A stretch of 10,031 bases of DNA from a virus (lineage: Duplodnaviria > Heunggongvirae > Uroviricota > Caudoviricetes). The stretch lies in the IMG/VR virus record IMGVR_UViG_2663763232_000016, one strand, 5' to 3'. The notes under the pieces are model-generated. The model worked only from the letters and a program-made list of their open reading frames with translations, was not told the origin of the DNA and made no database searches. Both the position numbers and the translations under genes were made by a program. Position 1 is the first letter of the stretch. Each line of letters opens with the position of its first letter. Below are positions 1 to 10,031 of the stretch, one piece after another.

Positions 1-360
1 TACTCTGCCAGCCTGACCAACTTCACTTCGTCAATACGGTTCTCGCTATACGCTTACCGTACAAAAGCACTAGCTCTGGCTGAACTTTATAAAGCTAACG
101 AGGTTGCAGCCGATGACAAAATTGGTGGTCGTAAGGTGGAAGTAACCGGAACTGTACAGGACATAACAAAAAATTTCACGGATGATGTAGTTCTTAAACT
201 TGAAAGCGGTAATCGCTTCATGCCAGTCAGTCTGAGTATGTCTGATTCAGAAAAGGCGAAAGCGTCGAAATTGGAAAAGGGCCAGAAGATCACCGTGACT
301 TGCGAAAAGATGCAGTTTTTCATCGGTGCACCGTCTGGCGGAAACTGCACCTTTAACTAA
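1..360 (+). CDS. C-terminal part of an OB-fold (tRNA_anti-like / BOF-type) protein; gene start lies upstream of the window
   Basis: Frame 1 is open from base 1 to TAA at 358-360 (the ORF track shows only the part from GTG 136). The translation ...ELYKANEVAADDKIGGRKVEVTGTVQDI...KGQKITVTCEK has the spacing typical of small OB-fold proteins. Family call is pattern recognition only. Confidence 0.55.
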   Translation, partial: YSASLTNFTSSIRFSLYAYRTKALALAELYKANEVAADDKIGGRKVEVTGTVQDITKNFTDDVVLKLESGNRFMPVSLSMSDSEKAKASKLEKGQKITVTCEKMQFFIGAPSGGNCTFN

Positions 361-3025: not shown

Positions 3026-3229
3026 ATGAACATCAAATTTCAACAGCACGTTTATCAGGCTCTACTAGCTGAGGCCAAAAGGCAGGACAAGCCCCTGGCA
3101 CGGCTCTGTAATGAAATCTTGGAGACTGCCGCGAACATTTTCGACAACACACCAGACATCAAACCAGCATTAGCCAGCAAGGCGACACTTTACGGAGAAC
3201 AGAATGAGCAAACAGAACCGGGACAGTAA
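3026..3229 (+). CDS. Small DNA-binding protein, ribbon-helix-helix-like (CopG/Arc/ParG-type fold suspected), 67 aa
   Basis: AGGAGG at 3011-3016, 9 nt before ATG 3026. N-terminal short strand (NIKFQQ) followed by two predicted helices (HVYQALLAEAKRQD / PLARLCNEILETA) matches RHH layout. Not confirmed by search. Confidence 0.7.
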   Translation: MNIKFQQHVYQALLAEAKRQDKPLARLCNEILETAANIFDNTPDIKPALASKATLYGEQNEQTEPGQ

Positions 3230-3950
3230 GGATTTTGTAAAACTTGAATACAGCATTCTCGACCTTACCGAGTACAACGGCCTGACCATTAATGGCAACA
3301 TGAAAATTTTGCTATCTCTGGTTTACAGCTATGACAAAACAGGCAGAACTTATTACGAGTCTGTTGGCATGATTGGTAAACGTTGCGGCTGCAAGCCCGA
3401 AGCCGTTCGTAATTTCAGGAACAAGCTTCGTGAAGCGGGAATGATCACTTTTGAGGAAGAGCAGGGGAGAACACACAAAATTTCTCCGGTCGAACTCGAT
3501 CCATCGTTGATGGTTTTTCTTGACGATCATAATTCCACGCAGGTGAGTAATAGAAAAGTGGAAACCGAGGAGAGCGGTAAGAATGAGCAGAAACGTGATG
3601 TGGAATCTTTCGTGGTGGAACCTGCCGCGCCTGTTGCTGGAAAACCAGACGGCCTACCTGTTGTGGATATTCCTGTCGATGCTGATGTACCTGCCAATGA
3701 TGATGCGGTGAACGCTTCTGATAGGTATACCGATGAACAATTAGGCACCAAGCTGAGGCGATGGCGCAATTGGGGACTGGATGAAGAAGCAAAAGCGTTT
3801 TGTCTCTCTCATGGTATCAGCAGCGATGAGGACAGCATGAATCTGTTTATTCAAAATTATCATGTACCCGCACCGGAGTCAGTAGAACAACAGGTTAACG
3901 CCCCAGCAGATGAGCTGCCGCTTGATTATGATGACTCGATCCCTTTCTGA
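3204..3950 (+). CDS. Protein with N-terminal winged-helix-like DNA-binding domain (resembling replisome-organizer / replication-initiator N-domains) and an acidic, low-complexity C-terminal half, 248 aa
   Basis: GGAGA at 3194-3198, 5 nt before ATG 3204; the start overlaps the 3-prime end of the RHH gene by 26 nt. Segment KILLSLVYSYDKTGRTYYESVGMIGKRCGCKPEAVRNFRNKLREAGMITFEE looks like helix-turn-wing. C-terminal half is rich in D/E/P. Confidence 0.8.
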   Translation: MSKQNRDSKDFVKLEYSILDLTEYNGLTINGNMKILLSLVYSYDKTGRTYYESVGMIGKRCGCKPEAVRNFRNKLREAGMITFEEEQGRTHKISPVELDPSLMVFLDDHNSTQVSNRKVETEESGKNEQKRDVESFVVEPAAPVAGKPDGLPVVDIPVDADVPANDDAVNASDRYTDEQLGTKLRRWRNWGLDEEAKAFCLSHGISSDEDSMNLFIQNYHVPAPESVEQQVNAPADELPLDYDDSIPF

Positions 3951-3964
3951 TACTGGAGGAATAA

Positions 3965-4486
3965 TTGTGTGATGTTGCCAACAGCCTGACGGCTGAAACC
4001 CTTACGGTGCGAAGCACTTTACCAGAGGTAAACAAATCCGGTGCTGACGCCCCTGATTTGTCCCGTTTTTACAAGGCCCGCTCTCGTGATACCTCGTTGA
4101 TCGAGACTGCTAAAAAAATGCTCGTTCACGGTTACACCCCAGGCAAAACGGCGCTGCTCCTACGCTTGCCGTATGACCTGGTAAAAGGCCTTTACGATAA
4201 CTCGTGGAATCCTCGCTGTCGCAAGATAAGTAATACCAGTCAGTACGCTACTAAGCGAATGGCCCGAATGTACTACGAATCCGGCGCAATGCTGGCAAAA
4301 ATCTGTGCTGACCTTCAACTGCCTCTATTCACTGTGGTAACGCTGCTCAAGCGTGAAGGAATCACTGAAAAAGAAATGGCATCTCGAATGCCTGTTAGTG
4401 ATGATCCGTTGTTCATTGAGTACCGGAAGACTATTTCACGCAAGCAGGCAGCGCCCCAACGCCGATCACCACGACTGCATTATTAA
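3965..4486 (+). CDS. Hypothetical protein with two HTH-like segments, 173 aa; start codon uncertain
   Basis: ORF runs from TTG 3965 to TAA 4484-4486; GGAGGA at 3955-3960 sits only 4 nt upstream. HTH-like stretches: SLIETAKKMLVHGYTPGKTALLLRL and GAMLAKICADLQLPLFTVVTLLKREG. GYTPGKT is not a canonical Walker A motif. Confidence 0.65.
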   Translation: MCDVANSLTAETLTVRSTLPEVNKSGADAPDLSRFYKARSRDTSLIETAKKMLVHGYTPGKTALLLRLPYDLVKGLYDNSWNPRCRKISNTSQYATKRMARMYYESGAMLAKICADLQLPLFTVVTLLKREGITEKEMASRMPVSDDPLFIEYRKTISRKQAAPQRRSPRLHY

Positions 4487-4600
4487 TACCCCAGCCGGGG
4501 AAACTTGACCCTATTTGAATATTTATCCTTTCTGCCGTTAGCGGTAGCTGTTCTCCAATGGCTTCGTGACGGCCTGGACCTCTACAGGAAACATAACAAT

Positions 4601-4933
4601 ATGAATAACATTGAAGCAATCCGCGCCAGTATCCGGGAAGCAATGACCGCAGGAACAGACGAACCGGAAGATCTGAACAAATCCGCTGAAGAAGCATTGG
4701 CGGAGGCGGTGCAGAGTTACCTGTCCGCTTCGACTGCAACAGCCAGCGAGCCAGCCCCAAAAAGTGGTAAAACCATCAAGGAAAAAGGGATCGCTCTGTG
4801 CCACCAAGCCCAAGGTTATAGCGCTAATCTGCGTCCGGTAAGTCTCATGATGAAGGCAAGTCTTGATGAGCTAACACCTGAACAACGCGCCGCGCTTGAG
4901 CGTCTGGGTTACGATATCAATCAGGGGGTGTGA
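4601..4933 (+). CDS. Hypothetical protein, about 110 aa from ATG 4601; the in-frame TTG at 4505 would add 32 hydrophobic residues
   Basis: AGGAAA at 4585-4590 lies 10 nt before ATG 4601. The TGA stop at 4931-4933 overlaps the ATG of the next gene (TGATG). Alternative longer ORF from TTG 4505 as given in the ORF track. Confidence 0.6.
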   Translation: MNNIEAIRASIREAMTAGTDEPEDLNKSAEEALAEAVQSYLSASTATASEPAPKSGKTIKEKGIALCHQAQGYSANLRPVSLMMKASLDELTPEQRAALERLGYDINQGV

Positions 4934-7074
4934 TGTCTGGCACAAATAAGATTGTTACCAGCACCGTTAATGAAATCTCGTGGATCACAGACGATGCCTC
5001 ATATCAAAAAGCCAAAAAGAAGATTATCTCGCTTAAGGCTGCTCATGAGAAACCAGCTAAAGCGCTTGAGAAGGCCCAGAAGCGGACCGTCCAGAGTGAA
5101 GGCAAAGCAGCACTAGCCGCAGCGAAAGCCCAGACAGCGAAGCTACGCCAGGCTGAACAATTGTCAAAACAGCAACAGAAACAAGCTCAGATACAAGCCA
5201 AAATGGAACGGGATGCAGTCTCCCACGCTAATAAAATGACCTCATTACAGGCGCGTCAGTTATCCCAGCAGGAACAGGCCGCACGGCAGAATGCCAGACT
5301 AGCAGCGATATCTGACAAGGTGAGACAGGCGAGTCGCTCCCGTGCAATGACCTACAATCCCAACATGCCTGGAGTTCACTCCGATCCATCTCTGGTGGCA
5401 CGTCAAAATGCAGCGATGAACCGTGGTCACGGCGCTGTTGCTGCTGACATCGCAGCCACCAAAAAGGCGATGGCCTTGGAGGAGAAGCGTCAGCGTGAGA
5501 AAGAGGCAGGCCTTAAGCGCGAGGTGACTTATTACAACAGTTTGCGCCGTAGCGCTCTGACTCTGGCAAACGTGAACGGCGCTGACGTTGCAACCCGGTA
5601 CAAAGCCATCAGTGCAGCAAAAGAGGCACTTAAAGCCCAGAAAGAAGAGCGCTATACGGTTGAAGAGACCCGCTTCGAAATGGCTCGTATCACCACCGAA
5701 TTACGCAAGCAGGCTCGTCTGCAACAGCGTATGACCCGTGAGCAGAAAGCCGCAGGTGTTCGTGCTGGTCGTGTACGCACAGAAAGCCGTGGTGGTAGAG
5801 CTGGTCTTGCAGCTGCTGGTGTTATTGGTGGTGCGTCGTTAGTGGGTAGTATGGGCGTTTCTCGTGTCGGTCAGACCCTCCAGGGAAGCCTTGAGCGCTC
5901 TCGCGATGTGAAAAAACTCCAGCAGTACGGGATCAGCAACCTTGAGTTCGCTGCACTTCAGGATCTCTCGATGAGCCGTGTTGGTTACTCACTGAGTGCT
6001 GACAAGCTGGCTGACCTCAACAAGGACACAACCGAAAAGGCCGGGGAATTGTTAAACACCGGCTCTTTCAAACGTAACAAGAAAACTGGACAGGTGAATT
6101 TCAGCGGCGGTGGCGAGTTCGCAGATATCATCAACAATGTGCTGACCTCCACCAACGGTAACCAGAAGGTAGCACAGAAGGTGATCGGAGAACTGCAAAA
6201 GCTGGATTTTCCGACCTTCATCACTTACCTGAAACAGTTGCAGAAAACTTTCAAATGGACGGACAACCAGACCCGGCACCTGGCTGAGGCTGTGAATGAT
6301 GGTTCGGTCTTCCTCGAAGTGTTCAATGATGAGGGGCAGGGACTTATCCAGCGTATGCATCAACTCTCTTCTGAAGGATGGACCCTATCTGATGCGCAGC
6401 AAGCCAACCTCGATAAACTGGCGGCGTTAGGTGCTGAGTACAACCGAGTGCAAACCAGCCTTGCAGATCATTTCTCAGCCTCGTTTGTTGAAGGCCTGGG
6501 GCAGTACGCTGCCAATACTGAAACTCTACGTCAGAAGATGACTGGACTGATCCCAATTTCCGATGCCCTCGGCGTTGCCCTTGGTGAGCTAACCACCAAC
6601 ATTCTCTCCTTCTCTGGTCGAGTCGGTGAAGAACTTAAGAAAGGCGCGACATTGCCGGATGCGGTGTATGCGAGCGTGGTAGATGAATCTGCAAACGGTG
6701 CTGCCGATTGGATTAAGGAAAAGACAGGCTTTGATCCACGTAGCATCGGTCAGACGCTTAAGCAGATTTACCCGTGGCTGGATAGTTCAGCACCGAGCAA
6801 TATTGGCTCAGGCACGGCGTATAACGATCCAGCGCTAGCGTTGAATGTTCCTAGCCTGAACTATCTGACACCCCAGCAACCGACGTTTACGGTTCCGACA
6901 ATTGACAGCATGACGCTGCGACAGCCGATTCCTGTCAGTGTTACCGGGCAAGCGAACATTAATCAGCAGATGGATGTGTTTGTCCATGACGATAAGATCG
7001 CAGGGCTGGTTGATACCAAGATAAGGGAGAACAACCACGCGCAGAATAACCTCATCCTTGGGATTGCAGACTAA
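4933..7074 (+). CDS. Large protein (about 713 aa) with N-terminal A/K/Q-rich coiled-coil region, central glycine-zipper hydrophobic segment and a C-terminal domain of about 400 aa; function unknown (virion structural, scaffold-like or tape-measure-like are possibilities)
   Basis: ATG 4933 coupled to the upstream stop (TGATG) with AGGGGG at 4923-4928; a GTG at 4930 is the ORF-track start. TAA at 7072-7074. Hydrophobic segment GRAGLAAAGVIGGASLVGSMGV. No P-loop or catalytic motif recognised. Confidence 0.9.
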   Translation: MSGTNKIVTSTVNEISWITDDASYQKAKKKIISLKAAHEKPAKALEKAQKRTVQSEGKAALAAAKAQTAKLRQAEQLSKQQQKQAQIQAKMERDAVSHANKMTSLQARQLSQQEQAARQNARLAAISDKVRQASRSRAMTYNPNMPGVHSDPSLVARQNAAMNRGHGAVAADIAATKKAMALEEKRQREKEAGLKREVTYYNSLRRSALTLANVNGADVATRYKAISAAKEALKAQKEERYTVEETRFEMARITTELRKQARLQQRMTREQKAAGVRAGRVRTESRGGRAGLAAAGVIGGASLVGSMGVSRVGQTLQGSLERSRDVKKLQQYGISNLEFAALQDLSMSRVGYSLSADKLADLNKDTTEKAGELLNTGSFKRNKKTGQVNFSGGGEFADIINNVLTSTNGNQKVAQKVIGELQKLDFPTFITYLKQLQKTFKWTDNQTRHLAEAVNDGSVFLEVFNDEGQGLIQRMHQLSSEGWTLSDAQQANLDKLAALGAEYNRVQTSLADHFSASFVEGLGQYAANTETLRQKMTGLIPISDALGVALGELTTNILSFSGRVGEELKKGATLPDAVYASVVDESANGAADWIKEKTGFDPRSIGQTLKQIYPWLDSSAPSNIGSGTAYNDPALALNVPSLNYLTPQQPTFTVPTIDSMTLRQPIPVSVTGQANINQQMDVFVHDDKIAGLVDTKIRENNHAQNNLILGIAD

Positions 7075-7158: not shown

Positions 7159-7187
7159 TTGCAAATGATAATCATTCGTGTTAAAAT
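7159..7187 (+). promoter_or_regulatory. Strong sigma70-like promoter TTGCAA-17-TAAAAT with extended -10 TG
   Basis: -35 TTGCAA at 7159-7164, 17-nt spacer, TG at 7179-7180, -10 TAAAAT at 7182-7187, set in an AT-rich stretch; predicted start near 7195. Confidence 0.4.
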
Positions 7188-7243
7188 AATATACAAGGTG
7201 AATTACAACAGCCAAATGTTTTCCCTTCTCCTTAGGAATCAAA

Positions 7244-7270
7244 GTGCGCTTTTCCCAGAGCGCCTTTTCT
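7244..7270 (+). terminator. Weak intrinsic-terminator-like hairpin about 50-75 nt downstream of the 7159-7187 promoter
   Basis: GCGCT (7246-7250) pairs with AGCGC (7259-7263) around an 8-nt loop, followed by CTTTTCT (7264-7270). Short stem, so low confidence. Confidence 0.3.
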
Positions 7271-7532
7271 CATACAGCCAATATTCGCACCCTCTCACGG
7301 TAAGGTTAGGCCATTGCCGCTGGCTGTATCAGAAAAGATTTTCTCCGACCTTGGATCGGGGATTTGCCAAAGCCTTTCATCCTCGGAAGGCCGTCTTGCC
7401 AGACGAAAACTGGCATTGAGTGCGGCAGCGAAGATATGAGGTCTCCCGCTGCTGTGCTCCCTCATTCCTGAAGCGTGACCCGCCGATCATGCTTTCCAAA
7501 TCTCTCCATCAGAAAATACCATCGTGAAGCTA

Positions 7533-7552
7533 TTAGCAACGCATGTTGCTAA
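7533..7552. repeat. 20-bp palindrome TTAGCAAC-GCAT-GTTGCTAA (candidate operator or RNA hairpin)
   Basis: Perfect 8-bp inverted arms with a 4-bp spacer, read directly from the sequence; sits between the promoter at 7159 and the terminators at 7595-7678. Confidence 0.5.
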
Positions 7553-7594
7553 CCCGTAAACGGGTGAATTTCATCATCTCCGATGATCTACCAA

Positions 7595-7629
7595 CCGGGG
7601 CAGGCGTTTTCCTGCCTCCGGCTCTTTTT
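7595..7629 (+). terminator. Rho-independent terminator (about 10-bp stem with one bulge, then CTCTTTTT)
   Basis: CCGGGGCAGG (7595-7604) pairs with CCTGCC-T-CCGG (7611-7621) around loop CGTTTT; T-run at 7625-7629. Confidence 0.5.
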
Positions 7630-7735: not shown

Positions 7736-8080
7736 ATGGCATTCGAACATGAAAGCAAAACCCCACAGGATGTATTGGTTTATACCGATAGCCCGATCTT
7801 TCATAAGCGCACCGTGATCTTTGATCTGGCTGCTGATGTGACTTGTGGTGATGTGATTAACCCGACCACTGGCGCGGCATACGTTGCAGCCGATGCTGAT
7901 AACTGTGCTGTAGCTCTGCAAAATCAAATCGCTGGTGATGCCCGTAGCCTGGTCATTTCAGACCGTGGCTGTGTGTTCAATCCATCTGGTCTGGTTGTAG
8001 CGGCTGCTGCAAAAGATGCTGCTTACGCTGCCCTTGTTAAGCAAGGCAACCGCATTGCTGACGCAAACACTGCAATCTAA
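7736..8080 (+). CDS. Putative head decoration protein (lambda gpD-like size and composition), about 114 aa; alternative start ATG 7718
   Basis: ORF from ATG 7718 to TAA 8078-8080; the second ATG at 7736 has GGAGA at 7720-7724 (11-nt spacing) whereas 7718 has no Shine-Dalgarno. Small Ala/Gly-rich protein directly upstream of a capsid-sized gene; segment TTGAAYVAADADNCA resembles lambda D TDGAAVGILAVAADQ. Not confirmed by search. Confidence 0.7.
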   Translation: MAFEHESKTPQDVLVYTDSPIFHKRTVIFDLAADVTCGDVINPTTGAAYVAADADNCAVALQNQIAGDARSLVISDRGCVFNPSGLVVAAAAKDAAYAALVKQGNRIADANTAI

Positions 8081-8098
8081 TCAAGGAGTGATAACAAT

Positions 8099-9115
8099 AT
8101 GAAATTAAGTGATTTTACTAACCTTTCCGGTCAGTTTGTGAAGCCAAGCGGCGAGGGGTTCCTTCTGTCCAGCCTGGGGATCTTTACCAGCCGTCCAAGT
8201 GATACGCAAATCATCGCGCTCGACACACTGGAAGATGTGCAGCGTGAAGTGACCAAATCTGTTGCCCGTTATGGTTCTGAAATGTCCGGTCTAAACTTCC
8301 CTAAAGCGGCTAACGTGACTGTTCAGGCTCCACTGCATGTCTACAGCTCAACCATCACCAGCCAGGATTGGCAGGGGAAACGTCAGCCGGGAACAAATCG
8401 CCAGATGACCGCTGAAGATGTAGTTGCTAATCATACCCTGAAGCACTACCTGCAAACCCGCCGTGATGTTGAATATGCCATGGCGCAGAGCCTGCTTCAC
8501 AATACTGTAGAGGCGACACACCTTCGTGAAGGTCCTGATCTGAACTGGCAAACCTTCTGGGGTATTAACCAGCCGTCTGCTGTGGTGAAAACTGGCATCA
8601 GTGCCAACGTTATTACTGAGATGCAGAACGCTGTCACGCTGCTGAAGAAAAATCTGGGTGGCTGGTCTTCCAGCATCAAGCAGGTTTATCTGCTAGCGAG
8701 TCCGAGTCTTTTCACCGCCATTCAAGGCAACCCAACCGCATATCAGGCGGCTCTGTTTGGTGCTACGTCCCGTGACATCATTTTCCCTGACACTTTGGGC
8801 GCATATGATCGATACAACATCGGGCGCGTAACTGTAGTTCAGGTTGACGATCCGCTATACGGCATTGCAGATGGTGAAGGCTACATGCTGGCGACGTTCT
8901 CCAATGTTGTTGAAGGCGACCTTTCACCTTATATGACTTACCAGACTCCGGCGAGCCGTCATGCTGACGTTGCTAATGGTCCGGTTTATCCGTCTTACCA
9001 TTACGTTCTGCGTGATAAGTTCATGAATTATGAGGTGGTCAGCGAGCTATCACAAATTCAGATCCCAATGCGTCCAGACTTCGTTTTGAAAATTACGATG
9101 GATGACGCGGCGTAA
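8099..9115 (+). CDS. Putative major capsid protein (lambda gpE-like / HK97-fold class suggested by size and synteny), 338 aa
   Basis: AAGGAG at 8083-8088, 10 nt before ATG 8099; TAA at 9113-9115. Length close to lambda gpE (341 aa), directly downstream of the decoration-like gene, about 50 percent GC. Family call is from context and size, not from detectable identity to lambda E. Confidence 0.85.
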   Translation: MKLSDFTNLSGQFVKPSGEGFLLSSLGIFTSRPSDTQIIALDTLEDVQREVTKSVARYGSEMSGLNFPKAANVTVQAPLHVYSSTITSQDWQGKRQPGTNRQMTAEDVVANHTLKHYLQTRRDVEYAMAQSLLHNTVEATHLREGPDLNWQTFWGINQPSAVVKTGISANVITEMQNAVTLLKKNLGGWSSSIKQVYLLASPSLFTAIQGNPTAYQAALFGATSRDIIFPDTLGAYDRYNIGRVTVVQVDDPLYGIADGEGYMLATFSNVVEGDLSPYMTYQTPASRHADVANGPVYPSYHYVLRDKFMNYEVVSELSQIQIPMRPDFVLKITMDDAA

Positions 9116-9177: not shown

Positions 9178-9390
9178 ATGAAATTAGCTTTGATCGGTAC
9201 TGGCAACATGCCGCTGATGCAGTGGATTCTAGATGGCAAGGGCGATGATGCGATTATCAACATGTCAGCGTTAGCACGCAGGCTTGAGTGTAGTCGTTCC
9301 AGCCTACTTGACCGCATCCATACGCATGGATTCGACAGCGCTATTAGGTACTACCTCAACGAACAGCGACAACGAAAACTGAAAACATGA
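9178..9390 (+). CDS. Small protein with HTH-like segment, 70 aa (the ORF track shows a longer version from 9127)
   Basis: AGGAGA at 9167-9172, 5 nt before ATG 9178; TGA at 9388-9390. Segment INMSALARRLECSRSSLLDRIH looks like a helix-turn-helix. Function unknown. Confidence 0.55.
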   Translation: MKLALIGTGNMPLMQWILDGKGDDAIINMSALARRLECSRSSLLDRIHTHGFDSAIRYYLNEQRQRKLKT

Positions 9391-9391
9391 G

Positions 9392-9416
9392 AGCCGGGTT
9401 AATCCCGGCTTTTTTT
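9392..9416. terminator. Bidirectional rho-independent terminator shared by the capsid transcription unit and the convergent minus-strand gene
   Basis: Perfect 7-bp stem AGCCGGG / CCCGGCT around loop TTAAT, flanked by an A-run upstream and TTTTTTT at 9410-9416. The stop codon of the minus-strand gene lies in the loop. Confidence 0.75.
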
Positions 9417-10031
9417 ATGTACTTTGCTGAAGTCAAAAAGATTGTCAAATTTAATGATATCTAATCCAGAGATAGCGTGATTAACATCTTTCATCATTGC
9501 GCCATGTTCATCATAAGCGTTACGTATTGCCATGAATTCTTCTGGTGTTATCTGTGCTTTAAGCAAAGCCTGCATGATGAGAGTCATCAGTTTTGAGATG
9601 GCTATTTGCGTATTACCAGAAGATCGAAGAAGGGCGTTGAATGGCTCCCAGGAAACCTTTTTAATCAGAACATTATAGTGACTTAACTTGATGAAAGAGC
9701 TACCAATGCGAAAGGTATTTTCCGTCATATCTTTCAAGGATTCTTGAATATGATAATAGCTTTCTTCGTCGGCTTTTTGTCCTGATTTCGCCAGTGTGTC
9801 GAGAAAAGTCATAATGCGGTTTAAGTCAAAGCGCATACGATTGTAACGGCTTCTGGTGCTATCAATTTCTTCTTTAAGAGCGATTGCTGAATCAATTGCC
9901 CGCTCCATTTTTCTCGTCTTCACAATCTCCTGAAGTTTAACCCCTCCGAAGATGACGCCGCCAACCACACTCAACGCTGTTACAGCATTCGAAGCGATAG
10001 AGATAATGTTATCCCATGCTTGTAAATCCAT
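9399..10031 (-). CDS. Membrane-anchored protein (N-terminal transmembrane helix plus helical soluble domain), at least 210 aa; possible moron / superinfection-exclusion or abortive-infection candidate; may extend beyond the window
   Basis: ORF ends at TAA (complement of 9399-9401); its ATG is the last three bases of the window, so the true start may lie outside. Hydrophobic segment IISIASNAVTALSVVGGVIFGGV near the N-terminus. Local GC is about 34 percent in a hand-counted 100-nt sample versus about 50 percent in the capsid gene. Confidence 0.8.
   Translation of the reverse strand: MDLQAWDNIISIASNAVTALSVVGGVIFGGVKLQEIVKTRKMERAIDSAIALKEEIDSTRSRYNRMRFDLNRIMTFLDTLAKSGQKADEESYYHIQESLKDMTENTFRIGSSFIKLSHYNVLIKKVSWEPFNALLRSSGNTQIAISKLMTLIMQALLKAQITPEEFMAIRNAYDEHGAMMKDVNHAISGLDIIKFDNLFDFSKVHKKSRD

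Follow-up and report, generated by a model that had tools for sequence, protein, structure and literature searches.

The window that we analyzed is a 10,031-nt stretch of DNA, IMG/VR virus record IMGVR_UViG_2663763232_000016 (Caudoviricetes), and our subject is a pair of genes near its right end together with the integrative island that carries them. Both genes are on the + strand. The first (7736-8080) encodes a 114-aa head-decoration-like protein (DEC), of the beta-tulip or gpD type by homology. The second (8099-9115) encodes a 338-aa major capsid protein (MCP) with the HK97 fold, of the Phage_cap_E type and from an island-specific lineage. An earlier note on this DNA had paired these two ORFs as a decoration protein and a capsid protein; its coordinates are right, and both homology and fold agree with it. 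The note had also seen no terminase, portal, or ClpP- or S49-type protease in the preceding 5 kb, and we matched none there with Pfam, PHROGs, or NCBIfam. We place the start of DEC at the ATG at 7736, which has a GGAG 10 nt upstream; a 120-aa reading from 7718 is disfavored, as it lacks a Shine-Dalgarno (SD) sequence and as all of the homologues open with MAFE, at the 114-aa start. The MCP begins 18 nt after the stop codon of DEC, and its ORF is preceded by AAGGAG. Both genes are under strong purifying selection, with dN/dS values of 0.05-0.10 (MCP) and 0.08-0.17 (DEC) at dS of up to ~1.9.

The 338-aa protein is an HK97-fold major capsid protein of the type found in phiTE, rV5, phi92, and ICP1. 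A profile of its family (alignment A1, 20 sequences) matched phi92 gp124 (E = 2.7e-20, residues 4-333) and the phiTE MCP (E = 1.2e-13) in the PDB, and the MCP matched PHROG 29 (E = 2.5e-9). As a single sequence, it matches Phage_cap_E (PF03864) at a sub-threshold score (E = 2.8e-3; 17.2 bits versus a gathering score of 22.9 bits). An AlphaFold2 (AF2) model of the MCP (pLDDT 59, pTM 0.65) was compared to known structures with Foldseek. The phiTE capsid was the best match (E = 6.6e-15, TM 0.61), and capsid chains from phiTE, Bas63, ICP1, and Sf14 were all matched with E = 7e-15 to 1e-10 and TM around 0.6. The Ccm protein of SaPIbov5 (structure 7rwz) was a distant match. The earlier note had said that its idea would fail if no capsid fold were predicted for this protein, and Foldseek gives a capsid fold. 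We set aside readings as an encapsulin or a gene transfer agent (GTA) because the closest relatives of the MCP are capsids of tailed phages whose partner is of the gpD type, and because we saw neither a cargo gene nor a cluster like that of a GTA.

By profile comparison, the 114-aa family is homologous to a known decoration protein, that of the rV5-like coliphages: when we aligned a diverse family alignment (A3) to the rV5-like DEC with hhalign, the probability was 95% (E = 3.5e-8 over 91 columns). The match to DEC from Aeromonas phage PhAER-3 was weak. The phiTE decoration protein was the family's sole profile match in the PDB (E = 0.017). HDPD, the Pfam family of lambda gpD, was matched by 17 of the 21 family members, every one under the gathering score (E = 5e-4 for DEC from the window as a single sequence). 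A profile search of a set of 1.84 billion proteins gave nine distant homologues, none of which match HDPD, so they provide no bridge to lambda gpD. The AF2 model of DEC (pLDDT 42) was too poor for a fold search. DEC is encoded immediately before the MCP, and the same holds for all of the phages of the rV5/phiTE/ICP1-type group that we fetched; we will refer to these as helper-type phages.

The window is 100% identical to part of the chromosome of E. coli TC24 (locus L001), where the island is about 13.4 kb. It is flanked by a 71-bp direct repeat (68/71 identical) within the thiM thiamine pyrophosphate riboswitch, and there is a tyrosine integrase (PF00589) at its left end. The repeat copies lie outside of the window (16803-16873 and 30172-30242 of L001), and as 71 bp of the riboswitch is duplicated, a riboswitch is annotated at both ends. 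This attachment (att) site is unusual when compared to the tRNA sites of sister islands. Some contigs of 13-14 kb are the size of the island, because the 71-bp att repeat breaks short-read assemblies at the island's ends; we rejected the idea that these contigs are excised or packaged circles, as one contig alone has a terminal overlap (29 nt). The rightward operon encodes, in order, p148, p67, a replication initiator, p173, a protein of 110 or 142 amino acids, and a 714-aa protein; after a gap of 660 bp come DEC, the MCP, and p70, and then a leftward cargo gene. Pfam, PHROGs, and NCBIfam gave no terminase, portal, or ClpP/S49 protease among the proteins of the ~13.4-kb island. The 714-aa protein is the only tail-type protein, and the genes of an autonomous virion (terminase, portal, tail, and lysis) are otherwise lacking.

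The island appears to have its own replicon, which we predict from an iteron array, an AT-rich region, and a Rep-like protein. The candidate origin (1654-1790) consists of four repeats of ~23 bp (1654-1743), found by a repeat search and direct reading, followed by an AT-rich stretch. The iteron cores have the form (C/T)CGATTTTCG(A/T)G and are spaced by 22-23 bp (repeat families D1/D2). The origin lies within a gene-free region of 2.1 kb (361-2491), and part of this region (1203-1650) is 93% identical to a related island (L009), which is better conserved than the flanking genes. DnaA boxes were not enriched, and Rfam had no credible match across the whole window, with both of the gene-free regions included. 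The Rep-like protein (3204-3950, +) has 248 amino acids and a helix-turn-helix (HTH) domain. It resembles replication initiators (Pfam HTH_36; a DnaD-like/O-like replication initiation PHROG), and its counterpart in L009 matches DUF6945 (E = 4e-15).

Islands with the same architecture are present in Klebsiella, Enterobacter, Citrobacter, Pantoea, Raoultella, Kluyvera, Pseudocitrobacter, Silvania, and Dryocola, with a deep branch in Aeromonas. No terminase or portal was found in more than 20 related loci from enterobacteria and Aeromonas, and when the rV5-like large terminase (TerL) and portal and the PhAER-3 portal were used as tblastn queries, there was no match at a distance of up to 10 kb from any copy. 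DEC, MCP, and p70 always occur together and are the best-conserved block (77-96% identity among enterobacteria), while the replication and middle genes range from 25% to 100% identity among related loci. In E. coli, the islands are integrated at the thiM riboswitch, tRNA-Gly, or tRNA-Thr, with different integrases on either side. Their cargo also varies, and includes a superinfection-exclusion (Sie)-like protein, a methylase with a NmeDI-type endonuclease, Rap1a, and a resolvase. Some genomes hold two or three copies.

The family is uncommon in E. coli, with a patchy distribution. Of 5,426 complete E. coli genomes, 51 contain some part of the island and 12 contain the window's capsid pair; the other ~39 share the left and middle part but lack this pair. 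In the one of these that we examined (LWY24, L037 14062-15456), the architecture is the same, while identity to the DEC/MCP pair of the window is only 31-32%; the islands thus exchange capsid types as cassettes. In Pantoea cypripedii (L002 13077-14793), an inverted lone trio of p63, MCP, and DEC lies between two complete islands; it is of a third, highly divergent type, and its MCP is 24% identical to the window's. This suggests tandem arrays and recombination between satellites.

These capsid proteins are far from those of phages. The MCP is 21% identical to the rV5-like MCP over its full length, the island MCPs are 21-24% identical to those of helper-type phages, and among deposited phages we found no MCP that is over 24% identical. 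Two types of MCP from E. coli islands, a further type from Pantoea, and those from Aeromonas group together, apart from the rV5-like, ICP1, PhAER-3, and lambdoid MCPs. On these sequence comparisons, MCP and DEC are an island-specific lineage that is not detectably close to any deposited phage.

The short protein encoded just upstream of the 714-aa protein provides a link to helper-type phages. This gene (4505-4933, +) encodes 142 amino acids if it begins at the TTG at 4505 or 110 amino acids if it begins at the ATG at 4601. Residues 90-127 of the longer form (nt 4772-4885), with the motif KGIALCHQAQGYSANLRPVSLMMK, are 76% identical over 38 amino acids to the N-terminus of a 326-aa protein from rV5-like coliphages, which is encoded between the S78 prohead protease and the decoration protein. 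The gene order portal, S78 protease, scaffold, DEC, MCP was found in all of the helper-type phages that we fetched (rV5-like, ICP1, and phages of Aeromonas, Erwinia, Klebsiella, and Vibrio), and two of the records from Aeromonas, Erwinia, Klebsiella, or Vibrio phages or ICP1 label the protein in the third position as scaffold. These proteins share an N-terminal motif, KGIALCHxxQGYSANxRPxSLLMKS, which is common to gp124 of ICP1, an internal scaffold with experimental support (PMC10945586). The N-terminal helix of the 142-aa protein (DLNKSAEEALAEAVQSYL) also weakly resembles the extreme C-terminus of the phage scaffolds, which is DLNKSANDILQANVQKAL in an Erwinia phage. The E-value from hhalign was 0.0044, and none of 200 column shuffles scored as high. 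Tentatively, the 142-aa protein may consist of both ends of a helper's scaffold without the long middle. We call it a candidate mini-scaffold. The earlier note had considered whether the upstream genes might be divergent morphogenesis proteins. A fragment of one, the N-terminal motif of a scaffold, is indeed present in 4505-4933, but it does not form part of a standard head module.

Reading from the TTG adds a hydrophobic segment at the N-terminus, and the protein sequence of this segment is conserved in two other islands (L018 and L025), where the start codon is ATG. Because of this conservation, the 110-aa start in RefSeq may be too short. The short protein is also the fastest evolving (dN/dS = 0.24-0.31). 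In two islands (L009 6842-7219 and L015 8601-8942), a second type of short protein, without the QGYSAN motif, lies in the same position, and yet the capsid genes of L009 are 96% identical to the window's. That two types of short protein sit beside near-identical capsid genes suggests that the short protein is a swappable specificity module.

The 714-aa protein (4930-7074, +) is a second link. The earlier note had allowed that it might be a recognizable portal, protease, or scaffold protein, but it is a homologue of tape-measure proteins (TMPs), with matches to TMP families in PHROGs. Residues 5-218 align with the rV5-like TMP (E = 7e-15, with strong local blocks) and residues 308-569 align with the TMP of the phi92-like Klebsiella phage FBKp34 (E = 1e-37). 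The protein thus has an rV5-type N-terminus and a phi92-type middle, and its C-terminal part (534-691) is similar to the TMPs of siphophages. This chimeric gene is accessory, as it is missing from several islands (L013, L015, L016, and Pantoea island 1).

As a check on these links, we turned to the Aeromonas islands, which show the same pattern with phages of their own host. The first 65 residues of their short protein are 77% identical to the scaffold of PhAER-3; an adjacent S78 protease (152 amino acids) is 87% identical to the PhAER-3 protease domain; and the N-terminus of their TMP-like protein matches the tape measures of Aeromonas phages only, including phiA009 and phiA019, which are two of the phages that also match the scaffold motif. 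However, their MCP is only 23% identical to the PhAER-3 MCP, and similarity of their DEC to the PhAER-3 DEC was undetectable. So, judging from the sequences, the shell proteins are far from all of the phages that we tested, yet their neighbors carry short pieces that are close to phages of the same host. Two Aeromonas-type islands (L003 6590-7030 and L027 4315-4761) also encode a 146-aa protein that matches PHROG 2663 (E = 5e-27) and has the precomputed Pfam label Phage_Adaptor_PhiTE (a head-to-tail adaptor), in which case these islands would carry one more part that interfaces with the helper. The labels PF26210 (phiTE_211) and PF26075 (Adaptor_PhiTE) are precomputed only; a local Pfam scan of the same proteins did not return either family.

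Between the 714-aa protein and DEC is a candidate control region (7159-7628, +), which we identified from promoter and terminator scans. It includes a sigma70-like promoter (7159-7187), a leader of ~430 nt with a conserved RNA-like module (7373-7415), and an intrinsic terminator (7597-7628). The layout of promoter, leader, terminator, and ribosome-binding site of DEC is conserved across island variants. Within the module, hairpin P1 (7373-7378/7385-7390) has an anti-SD-like CUCCUC loop, and a pseudoknot is suggested by the loop of hairpin P2 (7392-7395/7402-7405), as its nucleotides 7397-7401 can pair with 7411-7415. When 11 variants were aligned with registration by hand, the pairs were canonical in 61/61 cases for P1, 43/43 for P2, and 50/55 for the pseudoknot, with compensatory changes. 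The module had no match in Rfam. A similar hairpin (CATC-TCTCC-GATG) and then the terminator come after the module. By analogy to pR'/tR' of lambda, this arrangement suggests that the late operon might be gated by the terminator. A second hairpin (9389-9413, no strand assigned), which resembles a bidirectional intrinsic terminator, closes the capsid operon. The earlier note had described the gene pair as bracketed by terminators. This holds upstream, where the hairpin at 7597-7628 is 108 nt before DEC, but the downstream hairpin follows a 70-aa ORF rather than the MCP.

We conclude that the element is quite probably of the phage-satellite type and tied to rV5/ICP1-type phages. More specifically, and with a probability of roughly 55%, we propose that the gene pair is the capsid-shell module of an integrative, self-replicating satellite (~13.4 kb) that resembles phage-inducible chromosomal islands (PICIs), that exploits large rV5/phiTE/ICP1-type myophages, and that would build its own shell with the help of the mini-scaffold. 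The earlier note had offered, as the last of three possibilities, a satellite-like or otherwise atypical particle-forming system. That is the one our results favor: this is a compact integrative island without a terminase, portal, or tail module, and its architecture is conserved from Enterobacteriaceae to Aeromonas. In the proposed mechanism, infection by a helper would lead to excision and replication of the island and to readthrough of the terminator-gated capsid operon. The island's MCP would form a shell that is sized for a genome of ~13 kb, and DEC would stabilize the shell once it has expanded. The mini-scaffold would guide assembly, and its helper-like motif would recruit the helper's portal and/or protease into the satellite's procapsid. 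Reports on P4 and SaPIbov1 are in line with this, as both are said to need the internal scaffold of the helper, probably so that the portal is incorporated (PMC10945586). The particle would then be completed with the terminase, neck, and tail of the helper. The tape-measure-like protein might lead to satellite-specific tails, or it might interfere with the helper's tails.

Several points weigh against this proposal. Deletion of the capsid gene or the decoration gene of EcCICFT073, the prototypical PICI of E. coli and the sole analogue with such a test, did not affect its transfer or its interference with lambda, and no small capsids were seen (PMC6092414), so the capsid pair of a satellite need not build a shell. 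The assignment of DEC is based on profile similarity and position, as its structure model failed, and the fold model for the MCP is of moderate quality (pLDDT 59). The probable identity of the helpers is based on short motifs (38-65 amino acids) and on an alignment of ~220 amino acids at the N-terminus of the tape measure (28% identity). The second type of short protein, in L009 and L015, has no match among deposited phages, and may hint at a helper that is yet to be sampled. We assume that the helper packages the island; no small terminase or pac/cos site was identified, and no search for cos was made. Excision, replication, packaging, and particles are all predictions, as we know this island from its sequence alone.

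The strongest competing explanation, which we consider unlikely, is that the island redirects the size of the helper's capsid or interferes with it, as Ccm does. The island's MCP and DEC would co-assemble with the helper's MCP or poison it, the mini-scaffold would compete with the helper's scaffold, and the resulting small or defective capsids would favor the island or block the phage. There are precedents: satellite homologues of the MCP that remodel helper capsids are known, Ccm itself (7rwz) is among the fold matches, and Ccm and PmCI172 have been discussed in this context (PMC6092414). The definition of proteobacterial PICIs includes a "capsid morphogenesis" gene, which is thought to alter the hijacked capsids (PMC10085698), and a short protein with just the ends of a scaffold would suit a competitor. 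However, a protein that co-assembles with the helper's MCP would be expected to track it, and the island MCPs are just 21-24% identical to helper MCPs while the interface pieces are 76-87% identical. Also, the island retains its own decoration protein, which diverges along with the MCP, and the Aeromonas islands combine protease, mini-scaffold, DEC, and MCP, which is a nearly complete procapsid module.

Less likely again is a defense island with structural decoys, in which mimics of capsid, scaffold, and tape-measure proteins abort the assembly of rV5-type phages, in the manner of Tai or of the Vibrio cholerae element PLE, and the island itself is poorly transferred in particles. It is common for satellites and PICIs to bear anti-phage systems or to serve as such systems themselves, and tail-assembly inhibitors are among these (PMC11364771); these islands have Sie-like and restriction-modification (R-M) cargo; and the chimeric tape measure and the truncated scaffold resemble dominant-negative designs. 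But the presence of the island in many genera, at several att sites, and with swapped integrases implies frequent horizontal transfer, and an origin and Rep of its own are typical of elements that amplify for packaging. There were no matches in PADLOC. Full-length MCP and DEC that have remained under strong purifying selection at large divergence are more than a decoy seems to need. Finally, lone structural genes beside an integrase are common in cryptic prophages, and IMG/VR lists related loci as viral contigs, but it is very improbable that these are functionless head genes left over from a defective rV5-like or other prophage, since rV5/phiTE/ICP1-type phages have genomes of 115-150 kb and the records that we retrieved are isolates of lytic phages, no phage MCP in our collection is over 24% identical, the compact gene order is conserved across bacterial orders with dN/dS of 0.05-0.17, and the island has no annotated pseudogenes and an intact origin, Rep, and integrase.

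The remaining genes of the island are as follows. p148 (2492-2938, +; 148 amino acids) is the first gene of the rightward operon and is conserved in the family by synteny, with no family matches. p67 (3026-3229, +; 67 amino acids) overlaps the Rep-like gene by ~25 nt in all of the islands and is a possible regulator, with a weak match to a regulator in PHROGs (E = 0.047). p173 (3965-4486, +; 173 amino acids) is conserved by synteny, with no credible family matches. p70 (9178-9390, +; 70 amino acids) follows the MCP in every enterobacterial locus, has dN/dS of 0.10-0.18, and looks HTH-like by eye; it had no match to any family or phage, and a role in packaging specificity or regulation would be a guess. 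At the left end of the window (1-360, +) is the 3' part of a cargo gene for an OB-fold (tRNA_anti-like), Sie-like superinfection-exclusion protein (250 amino acids in L001; PF12869, E = 7e-16; PHROG 8545, E = 4.6e-22), which is one of the island's small cargo genes. The right-end cargo gene (9399-10031, -; ~211 amino acids) extends past the window and had sub-threshold matches only. In a sister island (L014 9675-11826), the right-end cargo is a DNA methylase with a NmeDI-type endonuclease, which is likely an R-M system, and this fits the pattern of satellites that bear defense genes. NCBIfam and PADLOC gave nothing for any core protein of the island.

A capsid and decoration pair without a terminase or portal has a precedent in EcCICFT073, where c1499 is the capsid protein and c1500 is the head decoration protein; with lambda as the helper, the DNA that is packaged is of phage size (PMC6092414). 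Like the window's island, EcCICFT073 (L038) is an integrative element of ~11-13 kb with rightward transcription, its own replicon, and a Phage_cap_E-type capsid gene beside a gpD-type decoration gene, and it lacks portal, large terminase, and tail genes (PMC6092414; L038). However, its pair is of the lambda type (45% and 43% identical to the MCP and gpD of a lambdoid prophage), with the MCP before the decoration protein. BLASTP found no similarity between its pair and ours, and no other protein of the island matches EcCICFT073. Other features that set the window's island apart are its iteron/Rep replicon, its scaffold-motif protein, and its tape-measure-like gene, and its apparent helpers are rV5-type myophages, not lambdoid siphophages.

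The classical model of a PICI, as used by SatelliteFinder, has five core components: an integrase, an alpA/merR/stl regulator, a primase-replicase, a capsid morphogenesis gene, and a small terminase (terS). The island has an integrase (PF00589). Its capsid gene is of the same broad Pfam family as those of PICIs (a capsid morphogenesis gene is part of the definition of proteobacterial PICIs, PMC10085698, and PF03864-type capsid proteins occur in 356 published PICIs, PMC13230959), but with no BLASTP-detectable similarity to c1499. The other three components were not found. No island protein matched an alpA, merR, or stl family (the 67-aa candidate regulator is unclassified). In place of a primase-replicase there is a small HTH/DnaD-like/DUF6945 initiator, with no primase and no match to the primase region of EcCICFT073. 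No protein gave a match to a small terminase or Rpp in Pfam, PHROGs, or NCBIfam (p70 and p173 are unclassified). Capsid-forming PICIs (cf-PICIs) such as EcCIEDL933 share the logic that we propose, with their own MCP capsid and borrowed helper parts (PMC10085698; bioRxiv 10.1101/2022.09.08.507074). But cf-PICIs encode a portal, protease, head-tail adaptor and connector, TerS, TerL, and HNH, and steal only tails; the window's island has none of this set, and it has a tail-type gene, which the cf-PICI model bars. The Aeromonas variants have the protease, and one has an adaptor. The island would work like a PICI or cf-PICI, yet it belongs to neither as now defined. As for P4-like satellites, there were no matches to the psu-delta-sid or alpha primase families, and no search for cos was made.

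PLE offers a parallel on the side of the helper. Its helper ICP1, a virulent myophage, has a head module of the same type (scaffold gp124 with the same N-terminal motif, decoration gp123, and coat gp122), and PLE, as its satellite, relies on the portal and packaging motor of ICP1. PLE differs in that it has no MCP or decoration gene, and instead remodels the ICP1 coat with an external scaffold, TcaP (PMC10945586). We saw no gene homology between PLE and the window's island. Among Staphylococcus aureus pathogenicity islands (SaPIs), Ccm of SaPIbov5 is a satellite-encoded, HK97-fold homologue of the MCP, and CpmB of SaPI1 serves as an alternative internal scaffold with the same coat-binding end as the helper's scaffold, which would parallel our idea of a mini-scaffold. 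These two SaPIs are from Gram-positive bacteria, have siphophage helpers, lack a decoration protein, and have no sequence relationship to the window's island. Another satellite, the plasmid PISP (TG93) of Vibrio crassostreae, encodes capsid E and a protease and was missed by SatelliteFinder (PMC13230959). It differs from our island (as compared by description) in being a plasmid (parA/repA) with no integrase and in having a small terminase and a MerR regulator.

In the searchable literature, we found no satellite of Vequintavirinae or of other rV5-like coliphages. The rV5-like phages are widely used as candidates for therapy and biocontrol. It would be relevant to host range, resistance, and gene transfer if an element in the bacterial chromosome were to hijack or block them. 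More tentatively, and with rather less confidence than in the reading of the pair as a shell module, we suggest that these islands form an undescribed, ancient family of "shell-only" satellites, spread from Enterobacterales to Aeromonas, that parasitize the large and mostly virulent rV5/phiTE/ICP1-type myophages. They would build a shell from their own MCP and DEC, obtain the portal, protease, terminase, and tail from the helper by way of swappable, host-matched adaptors (mini-scaffold, protease, and tape-measure N-terminus), and gate the operon with a novel leader RNA and a terminator. Such a family would fall between satellites that remodel the helper's capsid (P4, SaPIs, and PLE) and cf-PICIs that make the whole head, by combining a shell with short adaptors that mimic protein ends. 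If this is correct, then the family would be intermediate between PICIs and cf-PICIs and would be the counterpart of PLE in enterobacteria. It would also bear on the role of the capsid and decoration homologues of proteobacterial PICIs; in EcCICFT073, these show no phenotype when the helper is lambdoid. From the host-matched mosaic, one can predict the protein ends through which the scaffold contacts the portal or protease, and those through which the tape measure makes its contacts, in this group of phages.

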